DNA from: a candidate division WOR-3 bacterium UBA2258
Lineage (GTDB): Bacteria; Hydrothermota; Tepidihabitantia; Tepidihabitantales; Tepidihabitantaceae
Assembly (NCBI GenBank): GCA_002347155.1
Contig: DDXO01000013.1
Coordinates: 3,624-67,623 of the forward strand
Reading direction: 5' to 3'
DNA length: 64,000 bases
In this document: positions 2,005 to 62,109 of the stretch, piece after piece
Numbering within the stretch: position 1 is the stretch's first letter
Layout of the letters: every line of letters begins with the position of its first letter
Notes under the pieces: generated by a model
Told to the model about the DNA's origin: nothing
The model's database searches: none
What the model saw: only the letters and a program-made list of their open reading frames with translations
Position numbers and translations under genes: made by a program

Positions 2005-3297
2005 CTAGCGCTGGACCACGAACTTCTGGGTCATGCTGAGGCCGTCTGCATCGACTTTCAGCACGTACACGCCCGACTTGGATAGGGGCACGAAGTTCAG
2101 GCCCCTGGCTGCGGTCTGCCTCGCCACAACTCTGCCGAGAGCGTCGGACACAAGCACGTTCGCCCTGGTCTGGGCAGTGAAGGAAATGCCGCGCCCAGAC
2201 GGATTGGAGAGGACACGGATACCCGGCCTGGCAATCGCCGGGACACTCCTCTCGTTTACACCCGGAATCAAGGGAATGCCGCCGTCGTAGGTTCTCAGGA
2301 TCGTGCCATCCGACCCAACGGCGTAGCCCGTGTCGGGGCCGTTCGGAAAGCACAGGCCGTGCATCCTGGCGTTGAGTCCCGCGGGCACCGTCGTCGCCCA
2401 CACGTCGGTATCTGATACGGTTCGGCCGACGAAGCCCTCGGCTCCGCAGATGTACGCGACATCCGAGGTCGGCACGTCGACGCCGTAGAGAGCCGTGACG
2501 GTAGAACACCTCACGACCTGCCACACGGTGGCGCCGCCGTCGGCCGTAAACCGAACGACCCCACCGGTCGAGTCTATCCCGACCAGGTAGCCCCGGCTAG
2601 GGTCTTCGGGTGATAACGACACGGCCAGGATGTCGCCATTGGTCTGGGCACCTTGATAGTACTGGATGCTGTCGAATCCGTCCGTGGACCCGATGATGAA
2701 GTTCGAGTAGCCGAAGACTACGCCGATGGTGTCATTGGCGAACTCGGCCCCGAACGACGTATTCCCCGGGTTGCCGACCGGAATCGTTCTCCAGTTGCCA
2801 CCGCCGTCGGTGGTCTTCATCAATCTCGCGCCTCCGCCCTGCGGAGTCACCGCTATGTAGCCGGCCTCGCCGTTCTCCGGGAACTGGACAGTGTTCAACC
2901 GCTGCATTCCGGGAACGCCCTTCGAATTCCAGTTTGCCCCGCCATCCGTCGTCCTGAGCAGCGACCCGCCGCTGACGGCGTACCCGGTCGAGTCGTTCGT
3001 GAAGTAGACATCGTAGACCCCGTTCAACATACCGGTACTCTCCGGCAGCCAGGTATTGCCGCCGTCAGTTGTCTTGAGGATGGTGCCAAAGCCGGTCGTG
3101 TCAGTACCGACCGCATACCCGACCTGCGTGCCGGTCGGGAAGTGAACGGCCAGCAACTCGGCTCGCGTACCCGATATGAGTTGTTCCCAGGCCCCGAGGG
3201 CCAACGAAGTCAATAGCAGCAGCCCACTCATCACGGCGGAGCTGCTCCTGATGCCGGGTCTGACTGCTGCTCCTCCTCTACCCCGGCACAGGATCAC
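2005..3297 (-). CDS. Secreted BNR/Asp-box repeat beta-propeller protein (Ycf48-like) with a T9SS C-terminal sorting domain; paralog 1 of 4
   Basis: Repeated TTDGGxTW / TDGGxNW Asp-box motifs. C-terminus ...RGISFTAQTRANVLVSDALGRVVARQTAARGLNFVPLSKSGVYVLKVDADGLSMTQKFVVQR matches Por/T9SS CTD architecture. N-terminal hydrophobic signal peptide. Confidence 0.7.
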   Translation of the reverse strand: MILCRGRGGAAVRPGIRSSSAVMSGLLLLTSLALGAWEQLISGTRAELLAVHFPTGTQVGYAVGTDTTGFGTILKTTDGGNTWLPESTGMLNGVYDVYFTNDSTGYAVSGGSLLRTTDGGANWNSKGVPGMQRLNTVQFPENGEAGYIAVTPQGGGARLMKTTDGGGNWRTIPVGNPGNTSFGAEFANDTIGVVFGYSNFIIGSTDGFDSIQYYQGAQTNGDILAVSLSPEDPSRGYLVGIDSTGGVVRFTADGGATVWQVVRCSTVTALYGVDVPTSDVAYICGAEGFVGRTVSDTDVWATTVPAGLNARMHGLCFPNGPDTGYAVGSDGTILRTYDGGIPLIPGVNERSVPAIARPGIRVLSNPSGRGISFTAQTRANVLVSDALGRVVARQTAARGLNFVPLSKSGVYVLKVDADGLSMTQKFVVQR

Positions 3298-3327
3298 GCT
3301 CGATTCGCACCGTCCGCCTTCTCCCCT

Positions 3328-4560
3328 TCAGCGCTCGACCACGAGCTTCTGCGTGGTGGAGAAGCCGTCAGCCTTGACCTTCAGCACGTAGACGCCCGCT
3401 TTGGACAATGGCACGAAGTTCAGGCCCCTGGCTGCGGTCTGCCGAGCCACGACTCGGCCGAGGGCGTCGTACACGACGGCTTCCGCCTCGGCATCGGCGC
3501 TGAAGGCGATGCCGCGACGAGACGGGTTGTCGAGAACCCGGATTGAGACGTGCGCAGTCAGCGGGTCCTTCGGCTCGGCCACAGACATGGGGTTGCCGCC
3601 ATCATAGGTCCTCAGGATGACCCCGCCCGCGCCAACTGCAAACCCGGTGTCGGCCCCGGCGGGAAAGCAGACCCCGTGCAGGTCGGCGTGGCCGTCGTAC
3701 ATTGTCTGCTGAAAATGGATCGGGACACGCGACCTGGCGATGAAACCATCACTGCCGCATGCGTACGCGACGTTCGTTGTGGCCACGTCGATACCGTACA
3801 CGGCCCCCGGAACAGGCTCACAAGTCACGCTGTCCCACGGGTATTCGCCACCGGTTGCAGTGTATCGGACGACGCCGTGGATTGAGTCATTTCCGATGAG
3901 ATAGCCTGTGTTCGGGTCTGAACCTGAGAACGCTGCGGCAATAAGATCGGCATCCGTCTGAGCGTCACCATGCCAGGAACTGCCAGGACTGACCACAATG
4001 ACAAGCCCCCCGTGCCCGAGGACCACGCCCGTGCTGTCGGTCGCGAAGGCGCAGCTTGTCGAATGGTCGTGAATACCGCCTGCTTGTACAAGAACCCAAA
4101 CGGTCCCGCCATCAGTCGTCTTGAGCACCATCGCGGGGAACGTGTCGGAGTCGACGCCGATGAAACCGGTATAGCCGTTCGAGGGAAACGACACGTAGGT
4201 GAGCGTGTTGGAGACGCCGACCGTCACGGAAGTCCAGGTAGCGCCGCCATCTGTGGTTCTGATAGCAGACCCAGCCTCGCCGACCGCATACCCGGTGTCG
4301 TTGCTCTTGAAGTGGACTGAGTTGAGCGCTCCACTGACTCCGGCGGCTTGCTGCACCCAGGTGTCGCCGCCGTCAGTGGTCTTCAAGATGGCGCCGGAAT
4401 CGCCTACTGCGTAACCGACATGAGTACCTTCAGGAAAGTGAACCGCATACAGGTCAGCGGCTGTCCCCGAGTTCAACTCTGTCCAGCCCGCCGCAAGCAA
4501 CGAACCGAGCAGCGACAGGCTGCATGCCGCTACGGCGTTGCGCTTCAAACCGTACCTCAC
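3328..4560 (-). CDS. Secreted BNR/Asp-box repeat protein with T9SS CTD; paralog 2
   Basis: Same architecture and CTD (…VYVLKVKADGFSTTQKLVVER). Asp-box motifs LKTTDGGDTW and IRTTDGGATW. Confidence 0.7.
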   Translation of the reverse strand: MRYGLKRNAVAACSLSLLGSLLAAGWTELNSGTAADLYAVHFPEGTHVGYAVGDSGAILKTTDGGDTWVQQAAGVSGALNSVHFKSNDTGYAVGEAGSAIRTTDGGATWTSVTVGVSNTLTYVSFPSNGYTGFIGVDSDTFPAMVLKTTDGGTVWVLVQAGGIHDHSTSCAFATDSTGVVLGHGGLVIVVSPGSSWHGDAQTDADLIAAAFSGSDPNTGYLIGNDSIHGVVRYTATGGEYPWDSVTCEPVPGAVYGIDVATTNVAYACGSDGFIARSRVPIHFQQTMYDGHADLHGVCFPAGADTGFAVGAGGVILRTYDGGNPMSVAEPKDPLTAHVSIRVLDNPSRRGIAFSADAEAEAVVYDALGRVVARQTAARGLNFVPLSKAGVYVLKVKADGFSTTQKLVVER

Positions 4561-4617
4561 ACTTCCTCCTTCGTCACTGTCGTGAACTGCACTTCCGTGT
4601 CCATTGGCATCTCCGCT

Positions 4618-5895
4618 CTAGCGCTGGACCACGAACTTCTGCGTCGCCGTAGAGCCTGCCGATATCATCTTCATCACGTAGACGCCCGACTTGGATAGCG
4701 GCAGGAAGTTCAGGCCCCTGGCTGCGGTCTGCTTCACAACGACTCGGCCGAGGGCGTCGTACACAGCCACGCCCGCCTCCGCGTTAGAGTTGAAGGTGAT
4801 GCCAAACCGCAGAGGATTGGACAGGACACGAATCCCTGCACGGCCCATCGCTACGTCATCCGCCTCGGCAACCCAATGAACAAGACCACCTCTGTCATTG
4901 GTCCTCAGGATTGCCCCACCGGAGCCGACCGCGTAGCCTGTGTCGACGCCGTTTGGAAAGTGTATGCCGGACAAGGAAGCTCTCAGGCCGCCCGGCACCA
5001 ACGTCCTGTAGACGTAGGTCGGCGTCACCGTTATGCCGATCGTCGGCTTATCCGCGGAGTCCCCGACGAAGTACGCAATCTCGGTACCGGGCATGTCGAG
5101 TCCGCGATAGGCGAACACCGTCCAGCACCGGACCGAGTCCCACGGCGTCGCGCCGAAGTCATCGGTGTACCTGATGATCCCGCGTGCCGAGTCATATCCG
5201 ACCAGATAGCCCCTGTCCGGGTCATCGGGGGCGAACGCAACGGCAACCAGGTCTGCATTAGTCCGTGCGCCTTGAAACTCTGTGTTGTCGAACCCGTCTC
5301 TGGTCGCGAGCACGAGGCCGTCGTCGCCTACCGCCACACCCATGCTGTCGTTCGCCATGCTCCCGCCTCGAGTCACACTGGCCGGCCCACCGACGTCGAT
5401 GGCAGTCCAACTGCTTCCGCCGTCGATGGTCTTGAGCACCTTGCTCGGCGGGTTCCGTGGATGGGTGAAGATGTAGCCGACCTTGCCGTTCTCAGGGAAC
5501 TGGATGCAGGTCAAGGCTTCGCTGCTGGGGACCGTGACCGACTTCCAGGTTGCTCCACCATCGAACGTCTGGACCGCGGCCCCTGCGGACCCGACCGCGA
5601 AGCCGGTATCGTTGTCCTTGAAGTAGACGGAATTGAGCGGTCTCGCCATGCCCGAGGGCTGCCGCACCCAGGTGCTGCCGCCGTCCGTGGTTTTAATGAC
5701 CAGCCCGACTTCGCCACCCAGGCTGTCCATATCGGCGCCGACCACATACCCGACCTGTGTCCCCTCGGGGAAGTGAACCGAGTAGAGCGGCCCGGTCACA
5801 CCCGAATTGAGTTGGTACCAGGCCGCGAAGGCCGGAACGGCCATCAGCAGTATACCGGCCATTATTGCCAAACCGCATCTGCAATCAGACTTCAC
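4618..5895 (-). CDS. Secreted BNR/Asp-box repeat protein with T9SS CTD; paralog 3
   Basis: Asp-box motifs IKTTDGGSTW and TFDGGATW. CTD …VYVMKMISAGSTATQKFVVQR. Highly similar to paralog 4. Confidence 0.7.
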   Translation of the reverse strand: MKSDCRCGLAIMAGILLMAVPAFAAWYQLNSGVTGPLYSVHFPEGTQVGYVVGADMDSLGGEVGLVIKTTDGGSTWVRQPSGMARPLNSVYFKDNDTGFAVGSAGAAVQTFDGGATWKSVTVPSSEALTCIQFPENGKVGYIFTHPRNPPSKVLKTIDGGSSWTAIDVGGPASVTRGGSMANDSMGVAVGDDGLVLATRDGFDNTEFQGARTNADLVAVAFAPDDPDRGYLVGYDSARGIIRYTDDFGATPWDSVRCWTVFAYRGLDMPGTEIAYFVGDSADKPTIGITVTPTYVYRTLVPGGLRASLSGIHFPNGVDTGYAVGSGGAILRTNDRGGLVHWVAEADDVAMGRAGIRVLSNPLRFGITFNSNAEAGVAVYDALGRVVVKQTAARGLNFLPLSKSGVYVMKMISAGSTATQKFVVQR

Positions 5896-5951
5896 TCTTC
5901 CTCCTCTATGTCTGCTGCCAACAACGCTCTTGTGCTGTTGTCTTCTCCTCT

Positions 5952-7220
5952 CTAACGCTGAACGACGAGCTTCTTCGTGGTGGCATTGCCATCACCATTG
6001 ACCTTCAACACGTAGACGCCCGCCTTGGATAGCGGCAGGAAGTTCATGCCCTTCGTTGCCCTCTGTCTCGCCACAACTCGGCTGAGAGCGTCGAACACGA
6101 GGACGTTAACCTCGGCGTCGGAGTCGAAGGCGATGCCGCGGCGAGATGGGTTGGACACGACCCGGATTCTTGTGCGGCTGACCGCCGGTCCTCTTTCCTC
6201 GCCCACGGCGAACCATGGCCCGGGCCAGTCGGCACGCAGAATCAGTCCGCCCGCGCCGACCGCGTAGCCAGTATCCATGCCGTGCGGGAAGCACACGCTG
6301 TGGAGCGCAGCCACTCCCCGCGGTGCCGGTGTCAGGAAGAAATCGTCGTCGGCGACCGAAATGAGAGCGCGTCCCTGGCCGAAGCTGTCCCCGCAGACGT
6401 ACGCAATGTGGGCGGCGTCCGTCATGTCGAGCCCATGGAAGGCCGTCGTTCGCCAGCACCTGACGCTGTCCCAAGGGGTCGTGCCACCGTCATCCGTGAA
6501 CCGGATGATTCCCTGTGACGAGTCATTGCCAATCAGGTAGGCCCTGCCCGGGTCTGTTGGCGAGAAGGCCACGGCCACGAGGTCAGCATCGGTCTGGGCG
6601 TTCTGATAGTGGGTACTGGCTAGTCCGTCCGTAGTCCCAAGCACAAGGCCATCGTCACCGACAATGGCGCCGACGCTGTCGGTTGCGAAGCCGCCCCCGC
6701 GAGTCACATCCGACGGTCCGCCGACGCTGATGGCGGTCCAATTGTCGCCGCCGTCGATGGTCTTGAGCACCTTGCTCGGCGGATTCCGTGGATGTGCAAA
6801 GATGAAGCCGACCTTGCCGTTCTCAGGGAACTGGATGCCGGTCAGGTCTTCGTTGCTGGGCAGGGTGATCGACTTCCATGCTGCTCCGCCATCGAACGTC
6901 TGAATCGCGGCCCCCGCGGCCCCGACTGCGAAGCCGGTATCGTTACTCTTGAAGTAGACTGAATTGAGAGCTCCAGAGGTACCTGGGAATTGCGGCACCC
7001 ACGTGCTGCCGCCATCCGTGGTCTTGAGAACCAGCCCGACTTCACCACCCAGGCTGTCCATACCCGCACCGACCACATACCCTACCTGTATCCCCTCGGG
7101 GAAGTGAACCGAGTAGAGCGGCCCAGTCACCCCGGAATTGAGTTCGTACCACATCGCGAGGGCCGGCGAGCTGATTAGCAGGCAGCATATGACTGCTCCA
7201 GCGTACTTCGACACAAGCAC
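5952..7220 (-). CDS. Secreted BNR/Asp-box repeat protein with T9SS CTD; paralog 4
   Basis: Near-identical N-terminal half to paralog 3 (YELNSGVTGPLYSVHFPEG…LKTTDGGSTW). CTD …VYVLKVNGDGNATTKKLVVQR. Confidence 0.7.
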   Translation of the reverse strand: MLVSKYAGAVICCLLISSPALAMWYELNSGVTGPLYSVHFPEGIQVGYVVGAGMDSLGGEVGLVLKTTDGGSTWVPQFPGTSGALNSVYFKSNDTGFAVGAAGAAIQTFDGGAAWKSITLPSNEDLTGIQFPENGKVGFIFAHPRNPPSKVLKTIDGGDNWTAISVGGPSDVTRGGGFATDSVGAIVGDDGLVLGTTDGLASTHYQNAQTDADLVAVAFSPTDPGRAYLIGNDSSQGIIRFTDDGGTTPWDSVRCWRTTAFHGLDMTDAAHIAYVCGDSFGQGRALISVADDDFFLTPAPRGVAALHSVCFPHGMDTGYAVGAGGLILRADWPGPWFAVGEERGPAVSRTRIRVVSNPSRRGIAFDSDAEVNVLVFDALSRVVARQRATKGMNFLPLSKAGVYVLKVNGDGNATTKKLVVQR

Positions 7221-8589: not shown

Positions 8590-8675
8590 CCGTCGCGGGC
8601 CGTCCCTCGTCTCGGACCGTCCTCGGTCCTCGGTCTTCCGTCTTCAGTCCTCGGTCTTCGGTCCTTCCTGACGCA

Positions 8676-8707: not shown

Positions 8708-8711
8708 GCAA

Positions 8712-9060
8712 TGGAGGCGGCGGGAATTGAACCCGCGTCCGGAGAGTTCGGTTCCAGCGACCTACATGGTTAGTCAGTCGATATATCTTGGCGCACCGTT
8801 AGCCGACCGACAGGCGCGGTGAACCCAGCCCCAGAGATTCTCGGGTTACGGCCCTGAGACACGACCGCATCCCACATCACCCTTTTATACCCTGACTCCG
8901 CGCCGGGTGAGTTCGCGGGTCAAGGGGCTCCCTTAGTTAGGCAGCCAGTGCGTAGCTGTTATTGGCAGCTGTGTTTCCCCGGTCGGGATTTACGAGGTAA
9001 CCAGGGAACCTCGCCATGCACTCTGGCCCCTCAGGCACTCCGTCGAAGCCAATCGCCCCC
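8712..9060 (-). ncRNA. ssrA: tmRNA (ssrA), about 349 nt, encoding tag peptide (A)ANNSYALAA
   Basis: Minus strand reads 5' GGGGGCGAUUGGCUUCGACGG… and ends …CGCGGGUUCAAUUCCCGCCGCCUCCA, giving a 7-bp acceptor stem and T-arm. Internal ORF GCU GCC AAU AAC AGC UAC GCA CUG GCU GCC UAA encodes AANNSYALAA. Confidence 0.85.
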
Positions 9061-9233
9061 GACGAACGTCTGACAAGCCTTACTGACTCCAGATTGTCGC
9101 CTTATTGTACACCGGAATCGGACGCGAGTCAACATAGAACCGCCAAGGTCAGAACCCGGATGCCTGAAAACCAGATACGTTCCTCCGACTGGAAACTGAC
9201 ACCTGGAAACTGGTAACTCACGCCCGGCGCGTT

Positions 9234-14975: not shown

Positions 14976-15059
14976 CGGCGAGGAGTTAGGTGCTAGGAGT
15001 TAGCGGTTAGGAGTGCGACCGGGAACGATGCCTGACTGCTAACTGCTACCTCCTACCTG

Positions 15060-15914
15060 CTAACTCTTCTTATAGTCGTAAAACCCCTTTCCCGTCTTAC
15101 GCCCCAGGTACCCGGCCGCCACCATCCGCTTCAGCAACGGACAGGGACGGTACTTCGAATCCCCGATGTCGCTGTAGAGCACGTTCATGATGGCAAGACA
15201 GACGTCGAGGCCGATAAGGTCGGCAAGCGCCAGCGGACCGATGGGATGGTTCATGCCCAGTTTCATCACGGTGTCGATGGCCTCCTTGTCGGCCACTCCG
15301 GACTCAAGGCAGAATATCGCCTCGTTTATCATCGGCAGCAGCACGCGATTGGAGACGAACCCCGGCGAGTCATTCACGACGACCGGGGTCTTGCCCAGTT
15401 CCCTGGAAAGGGTAACGACCGTGTCGGTGACTTCGCGCAGGGTACCGAGCCCGTTGACCACCTCGACCAGTTGCATCACCGGCACCGGGTTCATGAAGTG
15501 CATGCCGATGACCTTGTCCGGCCGCTTCGTCGCCGCGGCGATGGCGGTTACGGAGATGGTTGAGGTGTTGGTCGCGAGGATTGTCTCCGGCCCGCAGACG
15601 CTGTCCAGCTTCGCGAAAAGCTCGAACTTCAGCTTCTGGTTCTCGGTCGCTGCCTCGACCACCAGCCCGCAGTCCTTCAAGTCTCCGAGGTCAAGGCTCG
15701 GCTTGATGCGGGATATGACCGCATCCGCCGCCTCCTGGGAGAGCTTCGCCTTCTCGACCATTCGGCCCAGCGACTTCTTCACCGTACCGAGGCCGCGGTC
15801 CACGAACTTCTGGTCGATGTCGTTCATGATGACGTCGTAACCGGCCATGGCGAACACCTGGGCGATGCCGTTGCCCATGGTGCCGGCGCCGACAACTCCG
15901 ATCTTCCGATTCAT
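15060..15914 (-). CDS. hbd: 3-hydroxybutyryl-CoA / 3-hydroxyacyl-CoA dehydrogenase (NAD-binding)
   Basis: Start trimmed to [30 protein letters not shown] (Rossmann GxGxxG). The longer track ORF is an N-terminal read-through. Confidence 0.85.
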
Positions 15915-16070
15915 GTTGACTCCTTGTGGGTAAGAACTCGAAGCTACGTTATACGAAACCGGTTCGGTGTCAAGCCGAACACGGCCGGGAGGTAACCGGC
16001 AGCGTGCCCAAGGACAGCCTTCGCCCCAACGGCGAACCAGGTGCACGCGCGGAAGACGGGGACCCTCTGC

Positions 16071-16128
16071 GGAAAACGGGGACTGTACCGCGCCCGGTCC
16101 GACATTGGTGCTCCGCGGGACTGTCCCC
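16071..16128. repeat. Small MITE-like element with two palindromic GGGACNGTCCC boxes (GGAAAACGGGGACTGTACC…GGGACTGTCCCC)
   Basis: Second copy at 35319-35413, inside hypA, with the same outer CCGGAAAAC/GTTTTCCGG arms and inner boxes. Confidence 0.4.
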
Positions 16129-16137
16129 ATTCCCCGC

Positions 16138-16190: not shown

Positions 16191-17169
16191 CGCAGCGTAA
16201 GGCCTCGTCCAAGACGCTGGCCTCATGACCGGCTGCCCGACTCTGCATATTCTACGCAATCTGCGGACTCAGTCCTCGCTGAAATGCTCTCCCCAATGCA
16301 CCGTCCATCGCTCCTCTCATCGGACCTCTCATCGCATCCTCCATTCCATAACGCATCGTACCTCGGACTGGATTCCGCGCTGTACCTCAACCTCGACCTC
16401 AACCTGAATCCTTCACTGCTCCCGTCACTGGACCGCGCATCGCTTGCGAAACTGCTCGTAGCATTGCTCCCCGCATTGGACCCTTCACTGCTCCGCTCAT
16501 TGCACGTCTCAACGCACCGGTCATTGCTCGCTGGAATCGATGCTGCATTGCTCCCCGAAATGCAGCCTGGGAGGCGACCCCTACCCTACCTTCTCGTCCC
16601 GGACGCTCGCTCTGAACTCCCCGAGAACGCGTTAGTTACGCCCATTCCCGGCCCTTCGGAGAACCACGCCCTCGTGTATTGGCCGTCAAGGACGCACTCC
16701 CCTGTCCACCCTCCGCCCGTTCCGCGGCCGCATGTTCTGCTTTCGCAGTCATTTGCGCCAGCAACCAATGCACTCTGTTCGGCGGCCTCGCTCTCCGGAT
16801 GTACTCAAGGGGGCCCGCGTCTCGCGGTTCATGCCTCTATCGACCGTTTTCGTCGCCATGAGAAGGTCCTTTCATACTGCCTCTCACTAGTAGTTTGCCG
16901 ATCCGGCAAAAAGGTAAGCAGGGACAGCCACGGTACTTGACGACAGCGTCAAGGGCATCGGGCCGCAGACGCAGTCCGCGAGTTCCCAGTGACCAGTGTG
17001 CAGGAGAACCAAGACCACACCCAATTACGCCCGGCCGGCTGACAACTAACGGTTGAGGACTTCCTGCCACTTGACCACTTGATCCCTTGGTCTCTCGATC
17101 CCTCTCCCCTTCCATTTGACACCTCCGCCCGCGAGACGTTGAGTGTGACTGAGCACAAACGCCTATTGG

Positions 17170-17199
17170 CAGGCTGCCCGCAGGGATGCGGGCAGCCTG
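17170..17199. terminator. Stem-loop CAGGCTGCCCGC-AGGGAT-GCGGGCAGCCTG immediately 3' of the minus-strand T9SS gene
   Basis: Perfect 12-bp inverted repeat. No U-tract, which is common in high-GC genomes. Confidence 0.35.
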
Positions 17200-17218
17200 T
17201 ATGAGGAAGCCGCTTGGG

Positions 17219-26551: not shown

Positions 26552-26583
26552 GCGGGCGGGCGCAGGCCCGCCCGCGCTCTTTA
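26552..26583 (+). terminator. Hairpin GCGGGCGGGC-GCAG-GCCCGCCCGC followed by CTCTTT
   Basis: Perfect 10-bp stem directly after the RRM gene stop. Confidence 0.5.
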
Positions 26584-26720
26584 CCTCTACCTTTGCCCTC
26601 ACCTTTGCCTTTACCTTCCTCCCTCCCACATCGGCCGCTGTTGACTTTCACGCGCCCGCCCCTAAGATGCAATAGTTTGCACATTCAGTCGACTCAACCC
26701 AACCACCGGAGGTCACGCCT

Positions 26721-31441: not shown

Positions 31442-31742
31442 GGTATCACCCCCTCTCGGCCGTGTTAGCGACGCCGGTCCCGCAATCGCTGCCCTTGCGT
31501 CCGGTTCTCCTGGCACGGTCATTGAGCTCTTCATTCTTGCTCTCATATATATATACGCTCACCCCCCCCCTCAAAATGACGTAAGAATCTTCATCTCCCG
31601 GGCGGTCGACCGACCCCCGACGCCCGGAATTCTGCTTTCTGCCTTCTGCCTTCTGCCTTCGTCTGACCCTCAAGAATGACCGTCCCCCCCACGGTCTGAT
31701 GCCGCCGGAGGGGCAATGGGGGGAATAGTCTCCAGAGTGCCT

Positions 31743-31970
31743 GTGTCCGTAACGGTGAGAGTACCCGTGACCGTAACGGTGAGAGTACCTGTGACCGTAA
31801 CGGTGTAAGTACCCGTGACCATAACGGTGAGAGCACCCGTGACCGTAACGGTGAGAGTACCTGTGACCATAACGGTGAGAGCACCCGTGACCGTAACGGT
31901 GAGAGTACCTGTGACCATAACGGTGAGAGCACCCGTGACCGTAACGGTGAGAGTACCTGTGTCCGTGCGC
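31743..31970. repeat. Tandem array of about 9.5 copies of a 24-bp unit GTGACCGTAACGGTGAGAGTACCY, with a 48-bp super-period
   Basis: Read directly from sequence. Variant units have CAT for CGT and GCACCC for GTACCC. One unit carries TAA. Confidence 0.85.
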
Positions 31971-32176: not shown

Positions 32177-32437
32177 ATGAAGCGAAGGAAGCTCCTGAGG
32201 CGACTGGCGTCCGGCGCGGTCAAGAACGTCGGCTTCGAAGACTTCGCCGGGCTGGTCAGAGCCTTCGGCTTCCTCCTCGTGCGAAAGAGCGGGAGCCACA
32301 ACATATACACTCGGCCGGACGTCGAGCAGCTCGTCAATCTTCAGGACGTGGACGGCCAGGCGAAGCCGTACCAGATACGGCAGTTCCTCCGGCTCGTGGA
32401 GAGGTACAATCTGTCTATGGAGGAAGAGAATGAGTGA
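32177..32437 (+). CDS. hicA: HicA-family type II toxin (YcfA-like)
   Basis: 86 aa; sequence …LLVRKSGSHNIYTRPDVEQLVNLQ…. Immediately followed by, and overlapping, a HicB-like gene. Confidence 0.6.
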   Translation: MKRRKLLRRLASGAVKNVGFEDFAGLVRAFGFLLVRKSGSHNIYTRPDVEQLVNLQDVDGQAKPYQIRQFLRLVERYNLSMEEENE

Positions 32438-32708
32438 CTATCACATCAACATCTTCTACAGCCAAGAAGACGGCGGATACGTCGCGGACATACCGGACCT
32501 CGATGCCTGCTCTGCGTTCGGGCGCACGCCGGAAGAAGCCCTGGCCCAGCTCGAAATCGCGAAGAAGGCCTGGTTGGAGGCGGCGCAGGAAGCCGGCAAG
32601 CCGGTTCCGCCTCCGCGCTACCGCCCGCTAATCTACCAGACCGCCAGGAACGAGGACGACGCCATGGCTCCCTGGGTCGCTCGCGACAAACCGCAGTCGG
32701 GCGAGTGA
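32430..32708 (+). CDS. hicB: HicB-family antitoxin (UPF0150)
   Basis: Sequence YHINIFYSQEDGGYVADIPDLDACSAFGRTPEEALAQLEIAKKAWLEAAQEAGKPVPPP matches the HicB/UPF0150 pattern. Confidence 0.7.
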   Translation: MSDYHINIFYSQEDGGYVADIPDLDACSAFGRTPEEALAQLEIAKKAWLEAAQEAGKPVPPPRYRPLIYQTARNEDDAMAPWVARDKPQSGE

Positions 32709-33076: not shown

Positions 33077-33217
33077 TGTGGGGTTGTTGAAAAACCCCAT
33101 TCGTGTCACCCTGAACGAAGTGAAGGGTCTTCTAACTCTCGCAGAATCAACATCGCGAAGATTCTTCGCTGCGCTCAGAATGACAAGAGGCGGCTTCTTC
33201 AACAGCCCCACTGTCCC
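33077..33217. repeat. MITE-like or structured-RNA element with terminal inverted repeats, TGTGGGGYTGTTGAAAAA … TTCAACRGCCCCASTGTCCC; copy A
   Basis: The ends are reverse complements of each other. Second copy at 52068-52226 has the same ends and a divergent interior. Confidence 0.45.
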
Positions 33218-34598: not shown

Positions 34599-35144
34599 TC
34601 AAGGCTGGGGTTTGACGGTCAGGGTGATGGCGTTGGACCAGGCGATGCCCTGCCAGGTGTCGAACCGGCGGCCGTAGTCTTTGACGCCGACCAGTTTCAG
34701 CCGGAACTGGAACGAAGCGACGTCGTCGGGAATCCAGACGCGCACGTCCCGGCTGACCGTGTAGCGCTCGTCCGGCTTCAGCAGCACCACGTCGGTTGAG
34801 TCGAGCCAGGCAGCGATGAGCGCGCGGCCGGGCCATTCTACCTGCAGAGGAGGGACCAGGGACTGGGGACTAGGGACTGGGGACTGGGGACTTCGAACGA
34901 GAAGCGAGGGACGAAGGAGGTGGTAGAAGACGAGCTGTTCCTTCCAGTCCCGTTTGATGAGGAGGTCGCGGTCGCTGGTGTTGGTCGCGGTGATGGCAAG
35001 GCGGAAGGTGTCACCGGCGTGGAAGACCTTCTTGTTGGACGTGATGCGGACGGCAATCGGGCCGTCGTGGTAGACACCACGCCACTGCGCAGCCATTGCA
35101 AACTGCAGAATGCAGAATGCAAATGTCAAAATGACGCCCGACAC
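34599..35144 (-). CDS. Hypothetical secreted protein. Start uncertain (GTG 35144 or ATG 35192). Contains a GGGGACT heptamer microsatellite
   Basis: Hydrophobic signal-like segment VILTFAFCILQFAMAA. A 7-bp x5.5 repeat at 34862-34902 encodes SPQSPVPSPQSLVP. Confidence 0.3.
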   Translation of the reverse strand: MSGVILTFAFCILQFAMAAQWRGVYHDGPIAVRITSNKKVFHAGDTFRLAITATNTSDRDLLIKRDWKEQLVFYHLLRPSLLVRSPQSPVPSPQSLVPPLQVEWPGRALIAAWLDSTDVVLLKPDERYTVSRDVRVWIPDDVASFQFRLKLVGVKDYGRRFDTWQGIAWSNAITLTVKPQP

Positions 35145-35181
35145 TCGACCACTGGACCACTTGACCACCGGACCACTCTCC

Positions 35182-35667
35182 TCAGTCCACATCGATGGAT
35201 TCGATGACGAGTTCCTGGCCGGAGACGACCTCGCCGCCGGCGTTGCACTTGCACATGCCTTCGAGGATGTGGTCAAGTGGTCCAGTGGTCGAGTCGTCAG
35301 ATGGTTCGGGACACGATTCCGGAAAACCAGGGGACAGTCCCTCGGAGCGCCTGCGTCCGACATGCCCGGGGCATCGTAGGAACGAGCGGCGCGGGACAGT
35401 CCCCGTTTTCCGGTCAATGCCCGCGCCCCACTCGGCGCCGCATTTGGGGCAGCGGATACGCAGGGGGACCCGCTCGAACTCGAGTTCGGCCTCGGCTGCC
35501 GGGGTGTCTCTCTTCATCTGGTCGAAGTAGAACCGGACGCAGTCCGGCACCACTCCCCCGCCTTCGCCCAAGAGCAGCCGGATTCGGTTTATGCGCTTCG
35601 CGCCGTGCTTCTCCGCCTCGGCGAGCGCCTGGGCGAGCATCGACTGGGTGATAGAGAGTTCATGCAC
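35182..35667 (-). CDS. hypA: Hydrogenase nickel-insertion protein HypA homologue, carrying an in-frame insertion of about 45 residues between its two zinc-finger CxxC pairs
   Basis: Canonical N-terminus MHELSITQSMLAQALAEAEKHGAKRI…RIRLLLGE and CPKCG … CKCNAGGEVVSGQELVIESIDVD. The insertion corresponds to MITE copy 35319-35413 plus GACCACT-type repeats. Confidence 0.55.
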   Translation of the reverse strand: MHELSITQSMLAQALAEAEKHGAKRINRIRLLLGEGGGVVPDCVRFYFDQMKRDTPAAEAELEFERVPLRIRCPKCGAEWGAGIDRKTGTVPRRSFLRCPGHVGRRRSEGLSPGFPESCPEPSDDSTTGPLDHILEGMCKCNAGGEVVSGQELVIESIDVD

Positions 35668-35754
35668 GCGGCAGGAAGTGATCCAGTGGTCAAGTGATCA
35701 TGTGACCCAGTGAGGAAGCCGAGTCCGGCACTGAACCACTGGGGCACTTGACCA

Positions 35755-38601
35755 CTATGATATCTCCTTGAGCATATTGGCCGCGACCGAGTCCGCCGGC
35801 ACGCGCTGCAGCCACATCTGCATCAGGCCCCGTGCCTTGGCCGTGTCGTGCAAGTCGTCGAGGTACAGCCGGTACAGCGCCAGGACTGCGTCTGACTTGT
35901 TCGGGCTGGCCGCGACTGCCGCGCGAAAGGCCGACTCTGCCCGGGCGAGCTCGCCCTTGCCCTGGAGGGCGTAGCCGCGCCGCAGCAGCAACTCGGGGTC
36001 CTGGAAGCCCAGCGCTTCGATGGAGTCGATGTATGCGACCGCCTTGTCGTACTGGCCGTTCAGCGTGGCAAACATAGAGGCGTGGTAGAAGAGCGGCACC
36101 TTTCTCTCCCGCTCGAGGTCGAAGCTGAGCGCCTTCTCGATGACCTCCTGCGCCTCGACGTTCTGGCCCGCTTTCTGGTACTCGCCGGCCAGGGCCAGGT
36201 AGCTGGCCGCGTAGTTGATGAGCAGCCCGCGCGTGTTCTCGTCCTTCTGCACGCGGCGGTCGAGCATCGAGTTCATGACGTACACGTCGTACAGCAGGTG
36301 CCGGGTCCGCGCGACGTCAACCTGGTCAGCACCCCGTTCCCGGACCACGCGGCTGACCAGACCTTCAAGCCGCACGTTCTGCACAACGTCCTCGAGGTTG
36401 TCGCGGGACACGGTGGTGGCGTAGTAGACCGGCGTCCGCGGCGTGTAGTTCGCGGTGAAGACCCGGGCCTGGTACTCCCCGGGCGTGCACGCGTAGTCAT
36501 CGGGCCACCGCAGCTTGATGCCCGCGCTGGTCGCGACGATGTCGCGCATCATGATGTCCTTGAGCAGGTAGGTACGGTTGTCTTTGCCGACAAACCCCTG
36601 GGGCAGCCTGTCGATTTCCGCCTCGGTGAACGAGATGGGCGCGCCCCAGCGTTTGAGCTGCTTGCAGTACCAGGGCGTGTTCAGCAGGGAGAGGTTGGCG
36701 ACCGCCACGTTCTTGCCGAACTCCGGGTCGAAGCCGGCCACACGCGACGGCACGGTCTGCATGAACCAGAGCGGGAAGGTATCGTTGTCGCCGTTGGTGA
36801 AAAGCACCGCGTGCTCGCCCGGACAGGATACCAGCATGTTGTAGCCGTACTCGGCCGGTATCCAGTCACCGCGCCGGGTCACCGACTGGTAGTTGAGGAG
36901 CATGGGCACGAACGCGAACGCGAGTGTCGCACCGGACGCGGCGTACACCGGCAGCTTCCGACCTCTCACCCAGTCGGCGAACCAGCGCAGGAAGGCATAG
37001 GCCCCGACGCCGACAAAGATGGTGTAGAAGACGAATGAGAACGCGAAGAAGTAGTCGCGTTCGCGTACCTCCAGGAACCCGAGCCTGCCCTGGGCCGGGT
37101 CGCCGCGCCGGGGGTCGGAAGGCGAGTACTTGAGGTTCAGGTAGGTCAGGAGCCCGACCGAAGCGACAAGGAACGCGACAAGGATGAGGACGAATGACCG
37201 TCGCTCCTTCTTGAACTGATGCCACATGCCCCAAAGCCCGAGGAGCGGCGGGATGAGCCCGAACAACGCCTGCCAGCCGACGTGCAGGAAGATGTCGAAG
37301 AACCTCGGGTTACCCCACTGCCAGAAGAAGTAGCGGACGTAGTATTTCACCTGCTCGTAGTAGGCCGTGAGCACGCTGAACCGCGGGTTCTGGTTCAGCC
37401 GCCATTCGTTCTCGGTCAGGAACTGGGTCTTGCGCGGCAGCAGCTTCATCGGGTCGTACTGCTCGCGCTTGAGCACGCTGACGAAATCGCGCCAGTTGGA
37501 GGGATTCACCTCGTTGATGCTCGGGTTCTGGTTGGCCCGGGTGTACATGATGAACTGAACCGTGCCGGCGAGCAGGACCAGACCCAGCATCAGCGCGACA
37601 TACCTGGGACGCAGCTTTCCCTGCCGGTGCAGCCAGTAGAGGTAGCCGCCGTACCCTGCGACCAGGAGCAGCAGCAGGACCGGCGACCGCACCCAGCGCT
37701 CGATGAACGCCACGGTCGGCGAGGCAAGAAAGAGGACCGTGTCGTCCATCACCGCGTTGCCTGCCGCGATATAGGCCACCACAAACACCAGGAAAATGAG
37801 CCCCAGGCCGTAGAACACCGTACGCGTGTGCGTGGAACGTTCCATCACCCTGATGCCATACCACGTCGCCGCCAGCATCAGCGGCACGGCGATGAAGGTG
37901 CCGAGGGAGAGACCCAGTTCCGCTATCGTCAGGATGACGAGGTACCCGGCAATCAGCTCGAAGATGCGCAACTGGACGATTGCCTCGCGGTCAACCACCA
38001 GGGCGAAGAACAGCACCGCGAAAAGGGTGAGCATCGGTGTGAAGTGGATGCCGGTAGAAAGGAAAAGCAGGTAGATTGCCCCGAGTATCAGGCGGTTGTC
38101 ACCGCCGTTGCGCTCGAGCTGGTCGCGCCAGAGCAGGGCCATGTAGAGAACCGACAGGGCGACGACCACGCAGGGCCCATACACTTCGGCCTCGACCGAG
38201 TTGTCCCAGAACGAGAAGGCAAAGGCACAGGCCAGGGCACCGAACACGCCGGCCACGTGCGGCAGCCACCTGTCAAAGCGCCGCTCGGCGCGGGCATAGA
38301 GCCCGATGAGCTTGATGACCAGCAGGTAGATCATGCCGCAGGAGAAGGCGCCGAACAGCACCGGAATGAGGTTTATCCGGAACGCGTATTCGGGGCTCGT
38401 CGGCAGCATGGCGAAGATCCGCCCGATGGTTACGAAAAGCGGCGTGCCGGGTGGGTGGGGAACGCCCATGATGACGGCGGTCGCGATCAACTCGCCGCAG
38501 TCCCAGAACGCTGCCGTCGGGGCGACGGTGGCAAGGTAGGCGGCCAACACGACAGCAAACACCGCGGCAAACAGGATGATGCGTATTCTCCGGTCGTTCA
38601 T
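35755..38601 (-). CDS. Large polytopic membrane protein, DUF2723 (glycosyltransferase family 39/PMT-like), with C-terminal TPR repeats; paralog A
   Basis: 948 aa. DUF2723 signature AFWDCGELIATAVIMGVPHPPGTPLFV. At least 10 TM helices. C-terminal TPR region. Confidence 0.7.
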   Translation of the reverse strand: MNDRRIRIILFAAVFAVVLAAYLATVAPTAAFWDCGELIATAVIMGVPHPPGTPLFVTIGRIFAMLPTSPEYAFRINLIPVLFGAFSCGMIYLLVIKLIGLYARAERRFDRWLPHVAGVFGALACAFAFSFWDNSVEAEVYGPCVVVALSVLYMALLWRDQLERNGGDNRLILGAIYLLFLSTGIHFTPMLTLFAVLFFALVVDREAIVQLRIFELIAGYLVILTIAELGLSLGTFIAVPLMLAATWYGIRVMERSTHTRTVFYGLGLIFLVFVVAYIAAGNAVMDDTVLFLASPTVAFIERWVRSPVLLLLLVAGYGGYLYWLHRQGKLRPRYVALMLGLVLLAGTVQFIMYTRANQNPSINEVNPSNWRDFVSVLKREQYDPMKLLPRKTQFLTENEWRLNQNPRFSVLTAYYEQVKYYVRYFFWQWGNPRFFDIFLHVGWQALFGLIPPLLGLWGMWHQFKKERRSFVLILVAFLVASVGLLTYLNLKYSPSDPRRGDPAQGRLGFLEVRERDYFFAFSFVFYTIFVGVGAYAFLRWFADWVRGRKLPVYAASGATLAFAFVPMLLNYQSVTRRGDWIPAEYGYNMLVSCPGEHAVLFTNGDNDTFPLWFMQTVPSRVAGFDPEFGKNVAVANLSLLNTPWYCKQLKRWGAPISFTEAEIDRLPQGFVGKDNRTYLLKDIMMRDIVATSAGIKLRWPDDYACTPGEYQARVFTANYTPRTPVYYATTVSRDNLEDVVQNVRLEGLVSRVVRERGADQVDVARTRHLLYDVYVMNSMLDRRVQKDENTRGLLINYAASYLALAGEYQKAGQNVEAQEVIEKALSFDLERERKVPLFYHASMFATLNGQYDKAVAYIDSIEALGFQDPELLLRRGYALQGKGELARAESAFRAAVAASPNKSDAVLALYRLYLDDLHDTAKARGLMQMWLQRVPADSVAANMLKEIS

Positions 38602-38775: not shown

Positions 38776-41622
38776 TCAGGAGAGCTGGCGAAGCTGGCTA
38801 GCAGCAGCCGAGTCCGACGGAACCCGTCGCAGCCACAGTTGGAGCATGGCCTTTGCCCGGGCCGTGTCGCGCAGCCTGTCGAGGTAGAGACGGACCAGCG
38901 CCTCCACGAACTCCCCGCGGCCCGGGTCCGCGTTCGCCGCCTCCAGGTAGGCCGACTCGGCCGCCCGGAATTCGCCCTTGCGCTCCAACGCGGCGCCGCG
39001 GCGCGCGACCAGGTCCGGCTGGTCGTACCCGAGGGCCCGCATGGTGTCCAGCGCCTCCAGAGCGCGGTCGTTGTCGCCGATCTGCAGCGCGTAGGTCGAG
39101 AGGTGATACAACAGCGTTATGCGGCGGTCTTTATTGAGCTCCAGCCTGCTGGCAAGGTCGAGAACGTGCTTGGCGTCGTGCGGCCGGTTCTGGCGTCGGT
39201 ACTCGTTCGCCATCGCCATGAACGTCGCTGCATAGGTGAGCAACAAACCCCTGGTGTTATCGTCTTTTTGGACGCGGGGGTCGAAGATCGAATTCATGAC
39301 GAACACGGAATCCACCAGATACCGGCTCCTCGCCAGGTCCACCTGCTCGGCACCGACGTCCGCTACGACGCGGTAGACCAGGCCTTCAAGCCGCAGGTGC
39401 GACCTCACGTCCTCGAGATTGCCCGGCGAGACCGTGCTCGCGAAGTAGACCGGGGTCCTGGGATGATAGCCTGAACCGAACACCTTGGCAGCGTACTCCT
39501 CCGGCGTCAAGCCGTAGTCATCCGGCCACTTGAGCCTGACCCCGCCCGCAGTCGCAACTATGTTGCGGACAATGATGTCCTCGAGCAGGAAAGTCCGGTT
39601 GTTCTTGCCCACGAAGCCGCGCGGCAGGCGCTCGATCTCTTGCTCGGTGAACGAGATGGGTGCACCCCACCGCTTGAGCTGCTTGACGTACCAGTTCGTG
39701 TTCAAGAGGGAGAGTATCCCGACCTTGACATTCTTGCCGAACTCCGGGTCAAAGCCGGCCACACGCGACGGCACGGTCTGCATGAACCAGAGCGGAAACG
39801 TATCGTTGTCGCCGTTCGTGAACACCACCGCATGGTCGCCCGGACATGACACCAGCATGTTGTGGCCGTACTCGGCCGCAATCCAATTGCCGCGACGCGT
39901 GACACTGGGGTAGTTCAGGAACATCGGCACGAAGGCGAACGCCAGCAGGCAGCCGGACAAAGCGTACGCCGGCGCCGGCCGGAACCGCAGCCGGTCGATT
40001 ACCGTGCGCAGGAATGCGTAAGCCCCGACACCGACGAAGATCGTGTAGAAGACGAACGAAAAGGCGTAGAAGTAGTCACGCTCGCGCACCTCGAGGTAGC
40101 CCAGCCTGCCCTGAGCCGGGTCGCCGCGCCTCGGGTCGGAAGGCGAGTACTTGAGGTTGAGGTACGTGATCAGGCCGACCGAGGCGACAAGGAACGCGAC
40201 GAGGATGAGGACGAATGACCGTCGCTCCTTCCTGAACTGATGCCACATGCCCCAAAGCCCGAGGAGCGGCGGAATGAGCCCGAGCAGCGCCTGCCAGCCG
40301 ACGTGCAGGAAGATGTCGAAGAACCGCTCGCTGCCCCATTGCCAGAAGAAATAGCGCAGGTAGAACTTCACCTGTTCGTAGTACGCAACCGCCAGACTGA
40401 ACCGCGGGTTCTGGTTCGTCCGCCAGTCGTTCTCGGTCAGGAACTGGGTTTTGCGCGGCAGGAGTTTCATCGGGTCGTACTGCTCGCGCTTGAGCACGCT
40501 GACGAAGTCGCGCCAGTTTGACGGGTCGGCCTCATTGATGCTCGGCGAATGGTGGGCGCGGATGAACATGATGAACTGCACGGTGCCGGCCAGGAGCACG
40601 AGCCCAAGCATCAGGCCGACGTACTTCGGGCTCAGTCGCTTCTGTCGATGCAGCCAGTACAGGTATCCGCCGTAACTGGCTACGAGCAGCACGAACAGCG
40701 CCGGCGAGTGCACCCAGCGCTCGATGAACGCCACCGTCGGCGAGGCGAGGAACAGCACGGTGTCGTCCATTATCCTGTTCCCGGCCGCCACATAGGCGAT
40801 GACGAAGACGAGGAAGAACAGCCCGAGGCCGTAGAACACCGACCGCGTGTGAGTCGAGCGCTCCATCACCCTGATTCCGTACCACGCCGCCGCCAGCATC
40901 AACGGCGCGGCGACGAACGTGCCGATGCCGAGGCCCAACTCGTTGACGGTCAGTATCGTCAGGTAGGCGGCCAGCAGCTCGAATATCCTGAGTTGCAGCA
41001 CCGAATCGCGGTCCACAACCAGAACGAAGACCAGCACCGCGAAAACGGTCATCATCGGCGTGAAGTGGATGCCGGTGGAGAGAAAGAGCAGGTACATCGC
41101 CGCGAGTATCAGCCGGTTGTCGGCTGCCCCTTGCCTGATGCGGTCCCGCCACAACAGGGCCATGTACAGAACCGAAAGGGCGACGACCACACAGGGCCCG
41201 TACACCTCAGCCTCGACCGAATTGTCCCAGAAGGAAAACGCAAAGGCGCAGGCCATGGCGCCAAAGACACCGGCAACGTGCGGGAGCCACTTGTCGTAGC
41301 GACGTTCGGCGCTGGCATAGAGCGAGATGAGTTTGACCACAAGCAGGTAGATGAGCCCGCACGAGAAGGCGCCGAAAAGCACCGGAATCAGACCGATCCG
41401 GAATGCGATCTCCCTGGCCAGCGGGAGCATGGCGAAAACACGGCCCAGGGTCACGAACAGCGGTGTGCCCGGCGGGTGCGGCACACCCATGATGTAGGAG
41501 GCGGCAATCAGCTCACCGCAGTCCCAGAATGCGGCGGTCGGCGCCGCGCTGTACAGGTACACCCCGGCCACGACGGCAAACACCGCCGCAAACACGATCA
41601 GCCTGGTCCTTAGCTGATTCAC
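38776..41622 (-). CDS. DUF2723/TPR membrane protein; paralog B (tandem duplicate)
   Basis: 948 aa, collinear and about 70% identical to paralog A. Confidence 0.7.
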   Translation of the reverse strand: MNQLRTRLIVFAAVFAVVAGVYLYSAAPTAAFWDCGELIAASYIMGVPHPPGTPLFVTLGRVFAMLPLAREIAFRIGLIPVLFGAFSCGLIYLLVVKLISLYASAERRYDKWLPHVAGVFGAMACAFAFSFWDNSVEAEVYGPCVVVALSVLYMALLWRDRIRQGAADNRLILAAMYLLFLSTGIHFTPMMTVFAVLVFVLVVDRDSVLQLRIFELLAAYLTILTVNELGLGIGTFVAAPLMLAAAWYGIRVMERSTHTRSVFYGLGLFFLVFVIAYVAAGNRIMDDTVLFLASPTVAFIERWVHSPALFVLLVASYGGYLYWLHRQKRLSPKYVGLMLGLVLLAGTVQFIMFIRAHHSPSINEADPSNWRDFVSVLKREQYDPMKLLPRKTQFLTENDWRTNQNPRFSLAVAYYEQVKFYLRYFFWQWGSERFFDIFLHVGWQALLGLIPPLLGLWGMWHQFRKERRSFVLILVAFLVASVGLITYLNLKYSPSDPRRGDPAQGRLGYLEVRERDYFYAFSFVFYTIFVGVGAYAFLRTVIDRLRFRPAPAYALSGCLLAFAFVPMFLNYPSVTRRGNWIAAEYGHNMLVSCPGDHAVVFTNGDNDTFPLWFMQTVPSRVAGFDPEFGKNVKVGILSLLNTNWYVKQLKRWGAPISFTEQEIERLPRGFVGKNNRTFLLEDIIVRNIVATAGGVRLKWPDDYGLTPEEYAAKVFGSGYHPRTPVYFASTVSPGNLEDVRSHLRLEGLVYRVVADVGAEQVDLARSRYLVDSVFVMNSIFDPRVQKDDNTRGLLLTYAATFMAMANEYRRQNRPHDAKHVLDLASRLELNKDRRITLLYHLSTYALQIGDNDRALEALDTMRALGYDQPDLVARRGAALERKGEFRAAESAYLEAANADPGRGEFVEALVRLYLDRLRDTARAKAMLQLWLRRVPSDSAAASQLRQLS

Positions 41623-51473: not shown

Positions 51474-51764
51474 CTACTGGACTCCTCGACTCTCGCTGGC
51501 ACTTCTGCATTCTGACTTCTGGTCTCTGACTTCTGACTTCGGTCGTACCCGACCCACCTTCCCGCCCGGCATCATGCTCAGGACCGGAACCCGTGTTCGC
51601 GCCCCTGCCTTATCCACGAGGTCAATCGCCTTGTCGGGCAACTGATGGTCTGGGTCAAAACGCACGGAGAGGTTCACTGCCGCCTCAAGGGACTGACGAA
51701 TGACCAATGGCGAATTCCTAATTAAGTCCCAATGGACGGGAATGTCCAATTGGGCATTGGGCAT
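51474..51764 (-). pseudogene. Fragment of a Clp/Hsp100-type AAA+ ATPase gene
   Basis: …RFDPDHQLPDKAIDLVDKAGARTRV matches the Clp ATPase sensor region. Only about 90 codons remain. Confidence 0.45.
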
Positions 51765-61985: not shown

Positions 61986-62109
61986 CAAGGCGGCCTACGG
62001 TCGACGGCCTCCTGGCATTTCAGATTGCAGGTTGCAGATTGGAGATTGCAGATTGATCCGGATGAGCAGCAGCCATGCCGGGTGGCTCGGTCTGTGGGTG
62101 TTGTGCGGG

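Follow-up and report, generated by a model that had tools for sequence, protein, structure and literature searches.

Rickettsia palindromic elements, which measure ~100–150 bp, lie in frame in housekeeping genes and are also found as intergenic copies (PMC10969869). We analyzed a 64,000-nt stretch of contig DDXO01000013.1 from the WOR-3 bacterium UBA2258 (the window, from whose start all coordinates are counted), in which the hypA gene carries an insertion between the two cysteine pairs of its predicted zinc site. The insertion contains a 95-nt inverted-repeat element with two palindromic boxes, together with an array of octamers. Our analysis indicates that this is probably a working hypA whose permissive zinc-finger loop tolerates the lineage's own repeat DNA, filtered for reading frame.

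Among known phenomena, the Rickettsia elements come closest. In both cases, a small palindromic repeat is held in frame, an extra peptide is placed at a position compatible with the fold, and copies occur between genes. The two systems differ in that their sequence families and phyla are unrelated and that the WOR-3 sequences come from environmental metagenomes, not from obligate intracellular parasites. The WOR-3 hypA site is furthermore a single hotspot holding a nested mosaic of at least four repeat types, its insert peptide is not conserved, and its element is read in two frames. The box element was not seen in several unrelated genes, although other repeat types do lie in frame in the gene next to hypA.

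[quoted passage not shown] Unlike these, it has no definable target-site duplication, no transposase or REP-associated transposase (RAYT) was seen, and it is present in two copies in 64 kb. REP repeats are defined by a GTAG or CGTC tetranucleotide at one end (PMC3733652), and this tag is missing from the element ends CCGGAAAAC and GTTTTCCGG. An earlier note on this DNA had called the element MITE-like; the inverted repeats (21 and 23 nt) and the size of 68–95 nt agree with that description. No clean target-site duplication was found, the copy number in the available DNA is low, no transposase was seen near either copy, and membership in the MITEs is unproven.

Within the HypA family, the protein of Thermococcus kodakarensis (PDB 3a43, 5aup) has 33 residues between its cysteine pairs at the same position, so the loop site evidently tolerates expansion. 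The T. kodakarensis loop is fixed and not made of repeats, whereas the hypervariable WOR-3 loop derives from repeats, is predicted to be unstructured, and is closed by a second pair of the form CxC.

HypA of the window and its enlarged loop

The hypA coding sequence (35182–35667, minus strand) is an open frame of 161 codons whose identity was supported by Pfam, AlphaFold2, and Foldseek. The Pfam family HypA (PF01155) covered the whole protein (E 7.2e-24; 84.4 bits against a gathering cut-off of 28.9 bits; profile positions 1–112). An AlphaFold2 model based on 37 aligned sequences had a predicted local distance difference test (pLDDT) score of 88–97 at residues 1–80 and 86–93 at residues 141–161, and its top Foldseek matches were 5aup_H, 5yxy_F, and 3a43 (E 1e-8 to 3e-9) and H. 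pylori 6g81. Translation from GTG-CAC-GAG gives a Met-His-Glu N terminus in which the nickel site His2 is present, and both His2 and Glu3 are invariant in a 37-sequence alignment (A1). The public call of the gene (P0001; 152 residues) begins at Met10 and misses the GTG-His2-Glu3 start (35665–35667); it is probably 9 codons too short. The protein as publicly called from Met10 was found on five contigs, and the DNA of three independent assemblies (two from ENA, one from JGI) is identical to the window across 700 nt, whole insert included, which excludes an assembly artefact.

The first zinc-ligand pair, Cys73-Pro-Lys-Cys76 (35440–35451, minus strand), consists of cysteines that are both invariant in alignment A1. 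The second, Cys139-Lys-Cys141 (35245–35253, minus strand), has the form MCxCNAGG and is nearly invariant among relatives. Canonical and expanded WOR-3 HypAs alike have CxC rather than CxxC at this position in the alignment, and we therefore read CKC as native to the clade and not as damage, with a predicted zinc site made up of CPKC and CxC. Of the features that the earlier note had proposed to check, CPKC and His2 are intact, and the second pair is CxC rather than CxxC.

Between Cys76 and Cys139 lie 62 residues, encoded by 186 nt of loop DNA, whereas canonical relatives have exactly 10 residues and 30 nt, so that the excess amounts to 52 codons. It corresponds to residues 82–133 (35269–35424, minus strand; 156 nt), a segment absent from canonical orthologues and composed of the 95-nt element, a short linker, and a GACCACTN octamer array. 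An example of the peptide encoded in this region is SEGLSPGFPESCPEPSDDSTTGPLDHILEGMCK. No Pfam domain and no Rfam match were detected in the 52 codons; an intein or an intron was considered and rejected, as neither a Pfam self-splicing domain nor an Rfam match was present. In the AlphaFold2 model, pLDDT falls to 50–60 over approximately residues 81–130, and DSSP assigned no secondary structure to residues 82–131. The insert is thus predicted to be a flexible, unstructured surface loop flanked by a confidently modeled HypA core.

The element occupies 35319–35413 (minus strand) and has outer arms CCGGAAAAC/GTTTTCCGG and two GGGGACTGTCCC boxes. Read on the plus strand, its arms are CCGGAAAACCAGGGGACAGTCCC (35319–35341, 23 nt) and GGGACAGTCCCCGTTTTCCGG (35393–35413, 21 nt). 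When both strands of the 64-kb window were scanned for the box GGGACAGTCCC with at most one mismatch, 8 matches were obtained against 1.9 expected by chance. They were confined to four sites: two in hypA, a second copy of the element (two boxes, at 16079 and 16117), and position 53998, where the match has a single mismatch. The second copy is a short, 68-nt form (16070–16137, plus strand; repeat pairs I7 and I14). It agrees with the hypA copy at 24 of 25 nt in one arm, and another 32 nt show 81% complementarity. It is called intergenic because its position is upstream of a 3-hydroxyacyl-CoA-dehydrogenase-like gene, ~155 nt from the ATG (15914). RNA folding gave –60.3 kcal/mol (z –3.7) for the element region 35310–35425 and –40.6 kcal/mol (z –2.3) for the second copy. 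The earlier note had described the enlarged gap (put at ~55 residues), the element with its outer arms and two palindromic boxes at 35319–35413, and an intergenic second copy (given as 16071–16128); all of these are borne out. Its figure of ~12 residues for HypA is not universal, given the 33 residues in T. kodakarensis.

The hypA copy differs from the shorter form by a net 24 nt (35361–35386, minus strand) that form a small ATGCCC/GGGCAT hairpin. Neither the 16070 copy nor those in two related loci (L001 and L018) have this segment, and the spacing of the boxes is accordingly 62 nt in the window hypA against 38 nt elsewhere. No other copy of the segment was found in the window. A link to an element downstream of hypA in loci L029 and L059 was rejected, since only an 11-mer is common to them, which is too weak.

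Loops in related HypA proteins

Among 5.8 billion proteins searched, 157 relatives were retrieved at E-values up to 0.001, and the few with a named source were WOR-3 HypA. Loop lengths were taken from 107 cluster representatives that have both cysteine motifs, among 120 listed of the 157 relatives. Among these listed matches, 46 of 107 had a loop of exactly 10 residues with the consensus GAEFGKIEEM, and the other 61 had loops of 20–85 residues in 26 different lengths. The same site is thus enlarged in 61 clusters. The earlier note had reasoned that a long loop of one kind, free of repeats, would speak for a lineage-specific insertion; instead, loop lengths vary widely and repeats abound. Outside the loop, the core of the relatives is 57–87% identical to that of the window HypA over aligned positions.

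We fetched the DNA of 68 related loci (numbered L001 onward here) from WOR-3 metagenome-assembled genomes and metagenomes. All expanded loops except one begin with GxEW and canonical loops with GxEF, a change explained by the DNA, in which the 5' G-run of the first palindromic box (TGG GGn) stands in place of TTC GGC. The loop DNA proved to be modular, with at least four repeat types over the relatives, and the same modules are present outside hypA. One module is the inverted-repeat element (two GGGGACTGTCCC boxes at a spacing of 38 nt), carried in addition to the window by L001, L017, L018, L046, and L059–L063; the box alone forms short tandem runs in L004, L005, L026, L033, and L034. Another is a CCCTCCCCCTGTGAGGGGGAGGG hairpin (L003, L018, L025, and L046), and a third consists of GACCACTN octamer arrays, translated as LDHSTTGSLDH. 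The fourth, found in the loops of L020 and L027, is one end of a GTCATTCCGAGCGAAGCGAGGAATC-type repeat that also occurs outside hypA in L002, L005, L029, L033, and L046 and at 33160 in the window. Nesting was seen in L061 and L062, in which one arm is followed by a second complete element.

Outside hypA, the related loci held one or two further copies of the element (L044 and a partial one in L031). Across the window and the related loci, the box element was seen solely in hypA and in non-coding DNA and not in unrelated genes. An exact scan of viral contigs for an element arm gave no match.

To follow the reading frame, both cysteine motifs were located on the DNA independently of frame in 27 distinct expanded loops. 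The loop DNA was a multiple of three in 26 of them. Over 1183 loop codons, the hypA frame contained 0 stops, compared with 7 and 48 in the other two frames. In the sole frameshifted allele, that of L063 (1501–2025, protein P0091), the first box has lost 1 nt and the C-terminal CxC strand is thereby out of frame; a pseudogene and an assembly error are the two explanations for it. The earlier note had pointed to the preserved frame in the window, where the 161-codon reading frame is indeed open, and the relatives extend this observation.

The peptide itself behaves differently from the frame. L059 reads the element as KRGLSRRAPDASLGGTVPAFG, whereas the window reads it in a different frame as KTGTVPR...EGLSPGFPE; the change of frame in L059 comes from small internal indels that are compensated ahead of the CxC motif. 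Because two frames are used for one and the same element, the amino acid sequence of the insert appears to be unconstrained, and selection appears to act on the reading frame. A flipped internal segment was considered for the variant in L059, L061, and L062 and was rejected, since same-orientation alignments were equal or better and the differences are small indels.

Repeats around hypA and in the rest of the window

The nearest genes to hypA are folP, cdaA, and two tandem genes for TMEM260-like glycosyltransferases with tetratricopeptide (TPR) repeats. Synteny around hypA is kept across WOR-3, and the TMEM260-like gene upstream and a beta-sandwich gene downstream recur beside hypA in many related loci. 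Many genes of the WOR-3 HypA clade adjoin TMEM260-like glycosyltransferase genes and have no hyp genes close by. In the window, the two TMEM260-like genes (35755–38601 and 38776–41622, minus strand) form a tandem duplicate encoding 948-residue proteins and share 72–83% DNA identity.

The gene after hypA (34599–35192, minus strand) encodes a predicted beta-sandwich of 197 residues and starts at an ATG within the end of hypA, so that 11 nt are common to both genes; the same start was picked by an independent gene caller. Its N-terminal region contains arrays of octamer and heptamer units (35097–35133 and 35142–35177, minus strand). Over the 59–400 nt from the hypA stop to the conserved WHGVY of the mature protein, the frame of the downstream gene had no stop in 29 of 29 distinct relatives, whereas the other two frames had stops in 25 and 27 of the 29. 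Since this frame is open in all relatives, the intergenic-looking arrays sit in an open reading frame, and they probably encode a variable N-terminal or signal region of the downstream protein. The same gene has a second hotspot, at which six AGGGACT heptamers (34851–34892, minus strand) encode 14 residues in frame. Here, the canonical HPTTGEQ is replaced by 26 residues in the window protein (an excess of 19), and other inserts occupy the site in L021, L038, L039, L044, and L057 and in the L067-type protein P0122. The insert falls in a low-confidence loop of the predicted beta-sandwich. Three separate in-frame repeat hotspots are therefore present within 1 kb.

The GACCACT-type repeats reported in the earlier note correspond to the GACCACTN octamer, for which the window contains 11 matches against 1.8 expected. 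The in-gene array (35269–35299, minus strand) encodes STTGPLDH, and in many relatives it reads LDHSTTGSLDH. Another array stands directly after the hypA stop (35142–35177, minus strand), within the 5' end of the next gene; it is near-identical in L003, L018, and L023, and L004 and L005 have a diverged version. Between the TMEM260-like gene and hypA, octamer arrays form a hairpin (35676–35756; arms 35685–35712 and 35729–35756; pair I5), and many relatives have GACCACT-type arrays at the equivalent position upstream of hypA. A weak octamer array is found near 17070 (17065–17103). Between the latter and the second copy of the element lies a stretch of ~1 kb (16260–17218) that has no convincing open reading frame, reiterates GAGCAATG/GCAGTGA-like motifs, and gave nothing by Rfam.

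The array inside hypA and the one behind its stop are complementary: 35269–35294 is a perfect (100%) 26-nt inverted repeat of 35143–35168, with 100 nt between them (pair I2). The 311-nt stretch 35130–35440, which holds this 26-bp long-range helix, folds as RNA with a z of –7.1. A conserved long-range helix of the arrays was nevertheless rejected, because their complementarity is exceptional solely in the window (z –4.9) and in L023 (z –10). Intragenic invertible segments ("invertons") exist, and the arrangement resembles one in that the perfect 26-nt inverted repeat brackets 100 nt containing the last 29 hypA codons and the stop. It differs in that an invertase gene was not seen, that the segment is flipped in none of the relatives, and that the complementarity of the arms is not conserved.

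In the 64 kb as a whole, ~25 short arrays of 7–8-nt units were noted, each locus having its own unit and most arrays lying at gene boundaries (for example, 8619–8665, 9188–9218, 15035–15065, 26579–26617, 51501–51544, and 62017–62055). Units within one array are more alike than they are to the orthologous array in relatives, which suggests concerted change of the units locus by locus. In cyanobacteria, short tandemly repeated repetitive (STRR) heptamers sit at gene boundaries. In Beggiatoaceae, direct-repeat arrays of the heptanucleotide TAACTGA are likewise found at gene boundaries (PMC4679880). The window shares with both the abundance of short arrays with 7–8-nt units at such positions; unlike them, its units are locus-specific and G+C-rich, and several of its arrays are intragenic in multiples that keep the frame.

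Other features of the window were recorded. A 24-nt unit, AGAGTACCCGTGACCGTAACGGTG, is repeated 9.7 times with 87% identity at 31734–31966, where there is no convincing gene call. A dispersed repeat of 27–39 nt, CCGATTTGACATCCCCGCCCGCGAnTCCTAGAAT, occurs at 1340, 1695, 17106, 33267, 33766, and 34457 and looks like a shared promoter (TTGACA, 17 nt, TAGAAT). The window also contains a gene for transfer-messenger RNA (8709–9060, minus strand; Rfam RF00023, 168 bits), four tandem paralogues of ~420 residues each (2005–7220, minus strand), and a HicA/HicB-like toxin-antitoxin pair (32177–32708, plus strand) whose Pfam scores are slightly under the gathering cut-off.

Explanations and significance

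We infer that HypA is still functional; the repeats would have spread through template switching, gene conversion, or transposition. In the ancestor of a sub-clade, G-rich palindromic boxes, GGGGACTGTCCCC, would have entered the 10-residue loop between CPKC and CxC, turning the Phe80 codon TTC into TGG. The site would later have gained, lost, and nested modules, including the 95-nt element, the CCCTCCCC hairpin, GACCACTN arrays, and the terminal repeat of the GTCATTCCGAGCGAAGCGAGGAATC type, and the in-gene GACCACTN array may have been copied, in inverted orientation, from the array behind the hypA stop. Selection would target HypA and not the insert peptide, which would be translated as a flexible loop at the tip of the zinc domain; only stop-free variants in multiples of three would survive, because the protein needs both zinc-ligand pairs and its C-terminal strand. 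On the sequence comparisons, the insertion appears old, clade-wide, and composite. A single recent insertion of one element does not agree with this, as at least three parts can be told apart in the window alone.

Several observations weigh against a tolerated, mobile insertion of this kind. Third-codon-position identity of the hypA core is 62–85% among eight element-carrying lineages (63–69% in full-length comparisons with the window), but the 17-nt left arm is identical in 6 of the lineages and the 12-nt right box in all 8. In an alignment of nine copies, the pairing of the arms is invariant, and three outer-stem pairs show compensatory changes. For the arms to be better conserved than silent sites, the element must either have a function at the DNA or RNA level or be renewed from other copies through gene conversion or re-insertion. 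Homogenisation from other genomic copies or re-insertion would suit this two-speed pattern, and the element may have a cis-acting DNA or RNA role. Support for mobility is weak: there is one other copy in 64 kb and one or two in the related loci, and no transposase was seen near either copy in the window. No clean target-site duplication was found; compared with L067, the nearest relative lacking the element, the window differs by 102 nt and there is no single-copy target, and CCGG, present at both element ends, is part of the palindrome. The phylogeny adds a further difficulty. In a tree of flanking genes, L039, with its canonical loop, groups inside the insertion-bearing clade (92% bootstrap), so that a history with a single gain needs allelic replacement. 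A tree of the HypA core (~90 residues) gave no resolution, and the one of flanking genes is better. Speaking against a required function of the element, the nearest relatives of the window in the latter tree (L067, L019, L021, and L035; 96–100% bootstrap) are without an intact element, and the boxes are visibly degenerate in L028, L029, and L034. Finally, a regular-expression search of the 64-kb window revealed no signature motifs of hypB, hypC, hypD, or [NiFe]-hydrogenase, in agreement with the earlier note, which had seen neither hypB nor a hydrogenase nearby.

The invariance of arms and boxes regardless of frame, while synonymous sites diverged by 20–40%, is also what would be expected if boxes and arrays were cis-elements in the coding sequence, acting in mRNA structure, in translation pacing or coupling, or as processing or protein-binding sites, with the peptide as a by-product. 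We regard this as unlikely, even though it draws on a good deal of the same data: the compensatory changes in three outer-stem pairs, the strong folds (z –3.7 for the element and –7.1 for 35130–35440), the 26-bp helix around the hypA end and the next gene's start codon, and the octamer arrays that flank hypA specifically in most relatives. A cis-element would not be expected to be absent from, or replaced by other modules in, many close relatives (L067, L019, L021, and L035), nor to have degenerate boxes in L028, L029, and L034. In addition, complementarity of the arrays stands out solely in the window and L023, there was no Rfam match, and promoter and terminator scans gave no relevant signals on the coding strand. 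A related suggestion, which we consider distinctly doubtful, is that boxes and arrays are maintained, and perhaps placed, at permissive coding spots and gene boundaries by a sequence-specific system of the lineage, be it a nucleic-acid-binding protein, a recombinase, or a process of template switching. This would account for the invariant arms, the arrays that evolve in concert within a locus, and the occurrence of three in-frame hotspots in 1 kb.

The frame data bear on two further explanations. Retention of the frame over the whole clade, the extended zinc-domain loop of other HypAs (T. kodakarensis), and the recurrence of short motifs such as LDHSTTGSLDH and GLSPxGDCPQNPFEGM could mean that the long loop is a lineage-specific adaptation of the protein, such as a flexible partner-binding arm, to which the repeats are incidental. 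Yet the loops vary between 20 and 85 residues and are unrelated in content, two frames are used for the same DNA, the recurring motifs are mere translations of DNA repeats, and the insert has low pLDDT and no predicted structure; we consider an adaptive loop very unlikely. The possibility that hypA is a decaying pseudogene, as the earlier note had considered, or that the insertion is an assembly artefact is largely refuted and seems to us highly improbable. It could appeal to the missing hyp and hydrogenase genes in the window, to the 1-nt deletion that takes the C terminus of P0091 (L063) out of frame, and to the contigs L056–L058, which begin in or just after the hypA loop and carry the 3' end only. 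It is contradicted by 26 of 27 loops that are in frame and free of stops (0 in 1183 codons), by a core that is 57–87% identical with invariant His2, Glu3, and first-pair cysteines, by identical sequence in three independent assemblies, and by synteny conserved across WOR-3. A working hypA with a permissive loop that is filtered for frame thus remains our preferred explanation.

A working, repeat-bearing hypA would mean that repeats can live inside essential-looking genes of a free-living uncultured phylum and not in Rickettsia alone. The dozens of natural alleles show the amount of foreign sequence that can be accommodated at the tip of the HypA zinc finger. For annotation, repeat loops inflate protein length, break contigs, and mislead start calls, as with the His2 missed here. 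The frame-independent conservation of the boxes hints at a function at the DNA or RNA level for some of these repeats.

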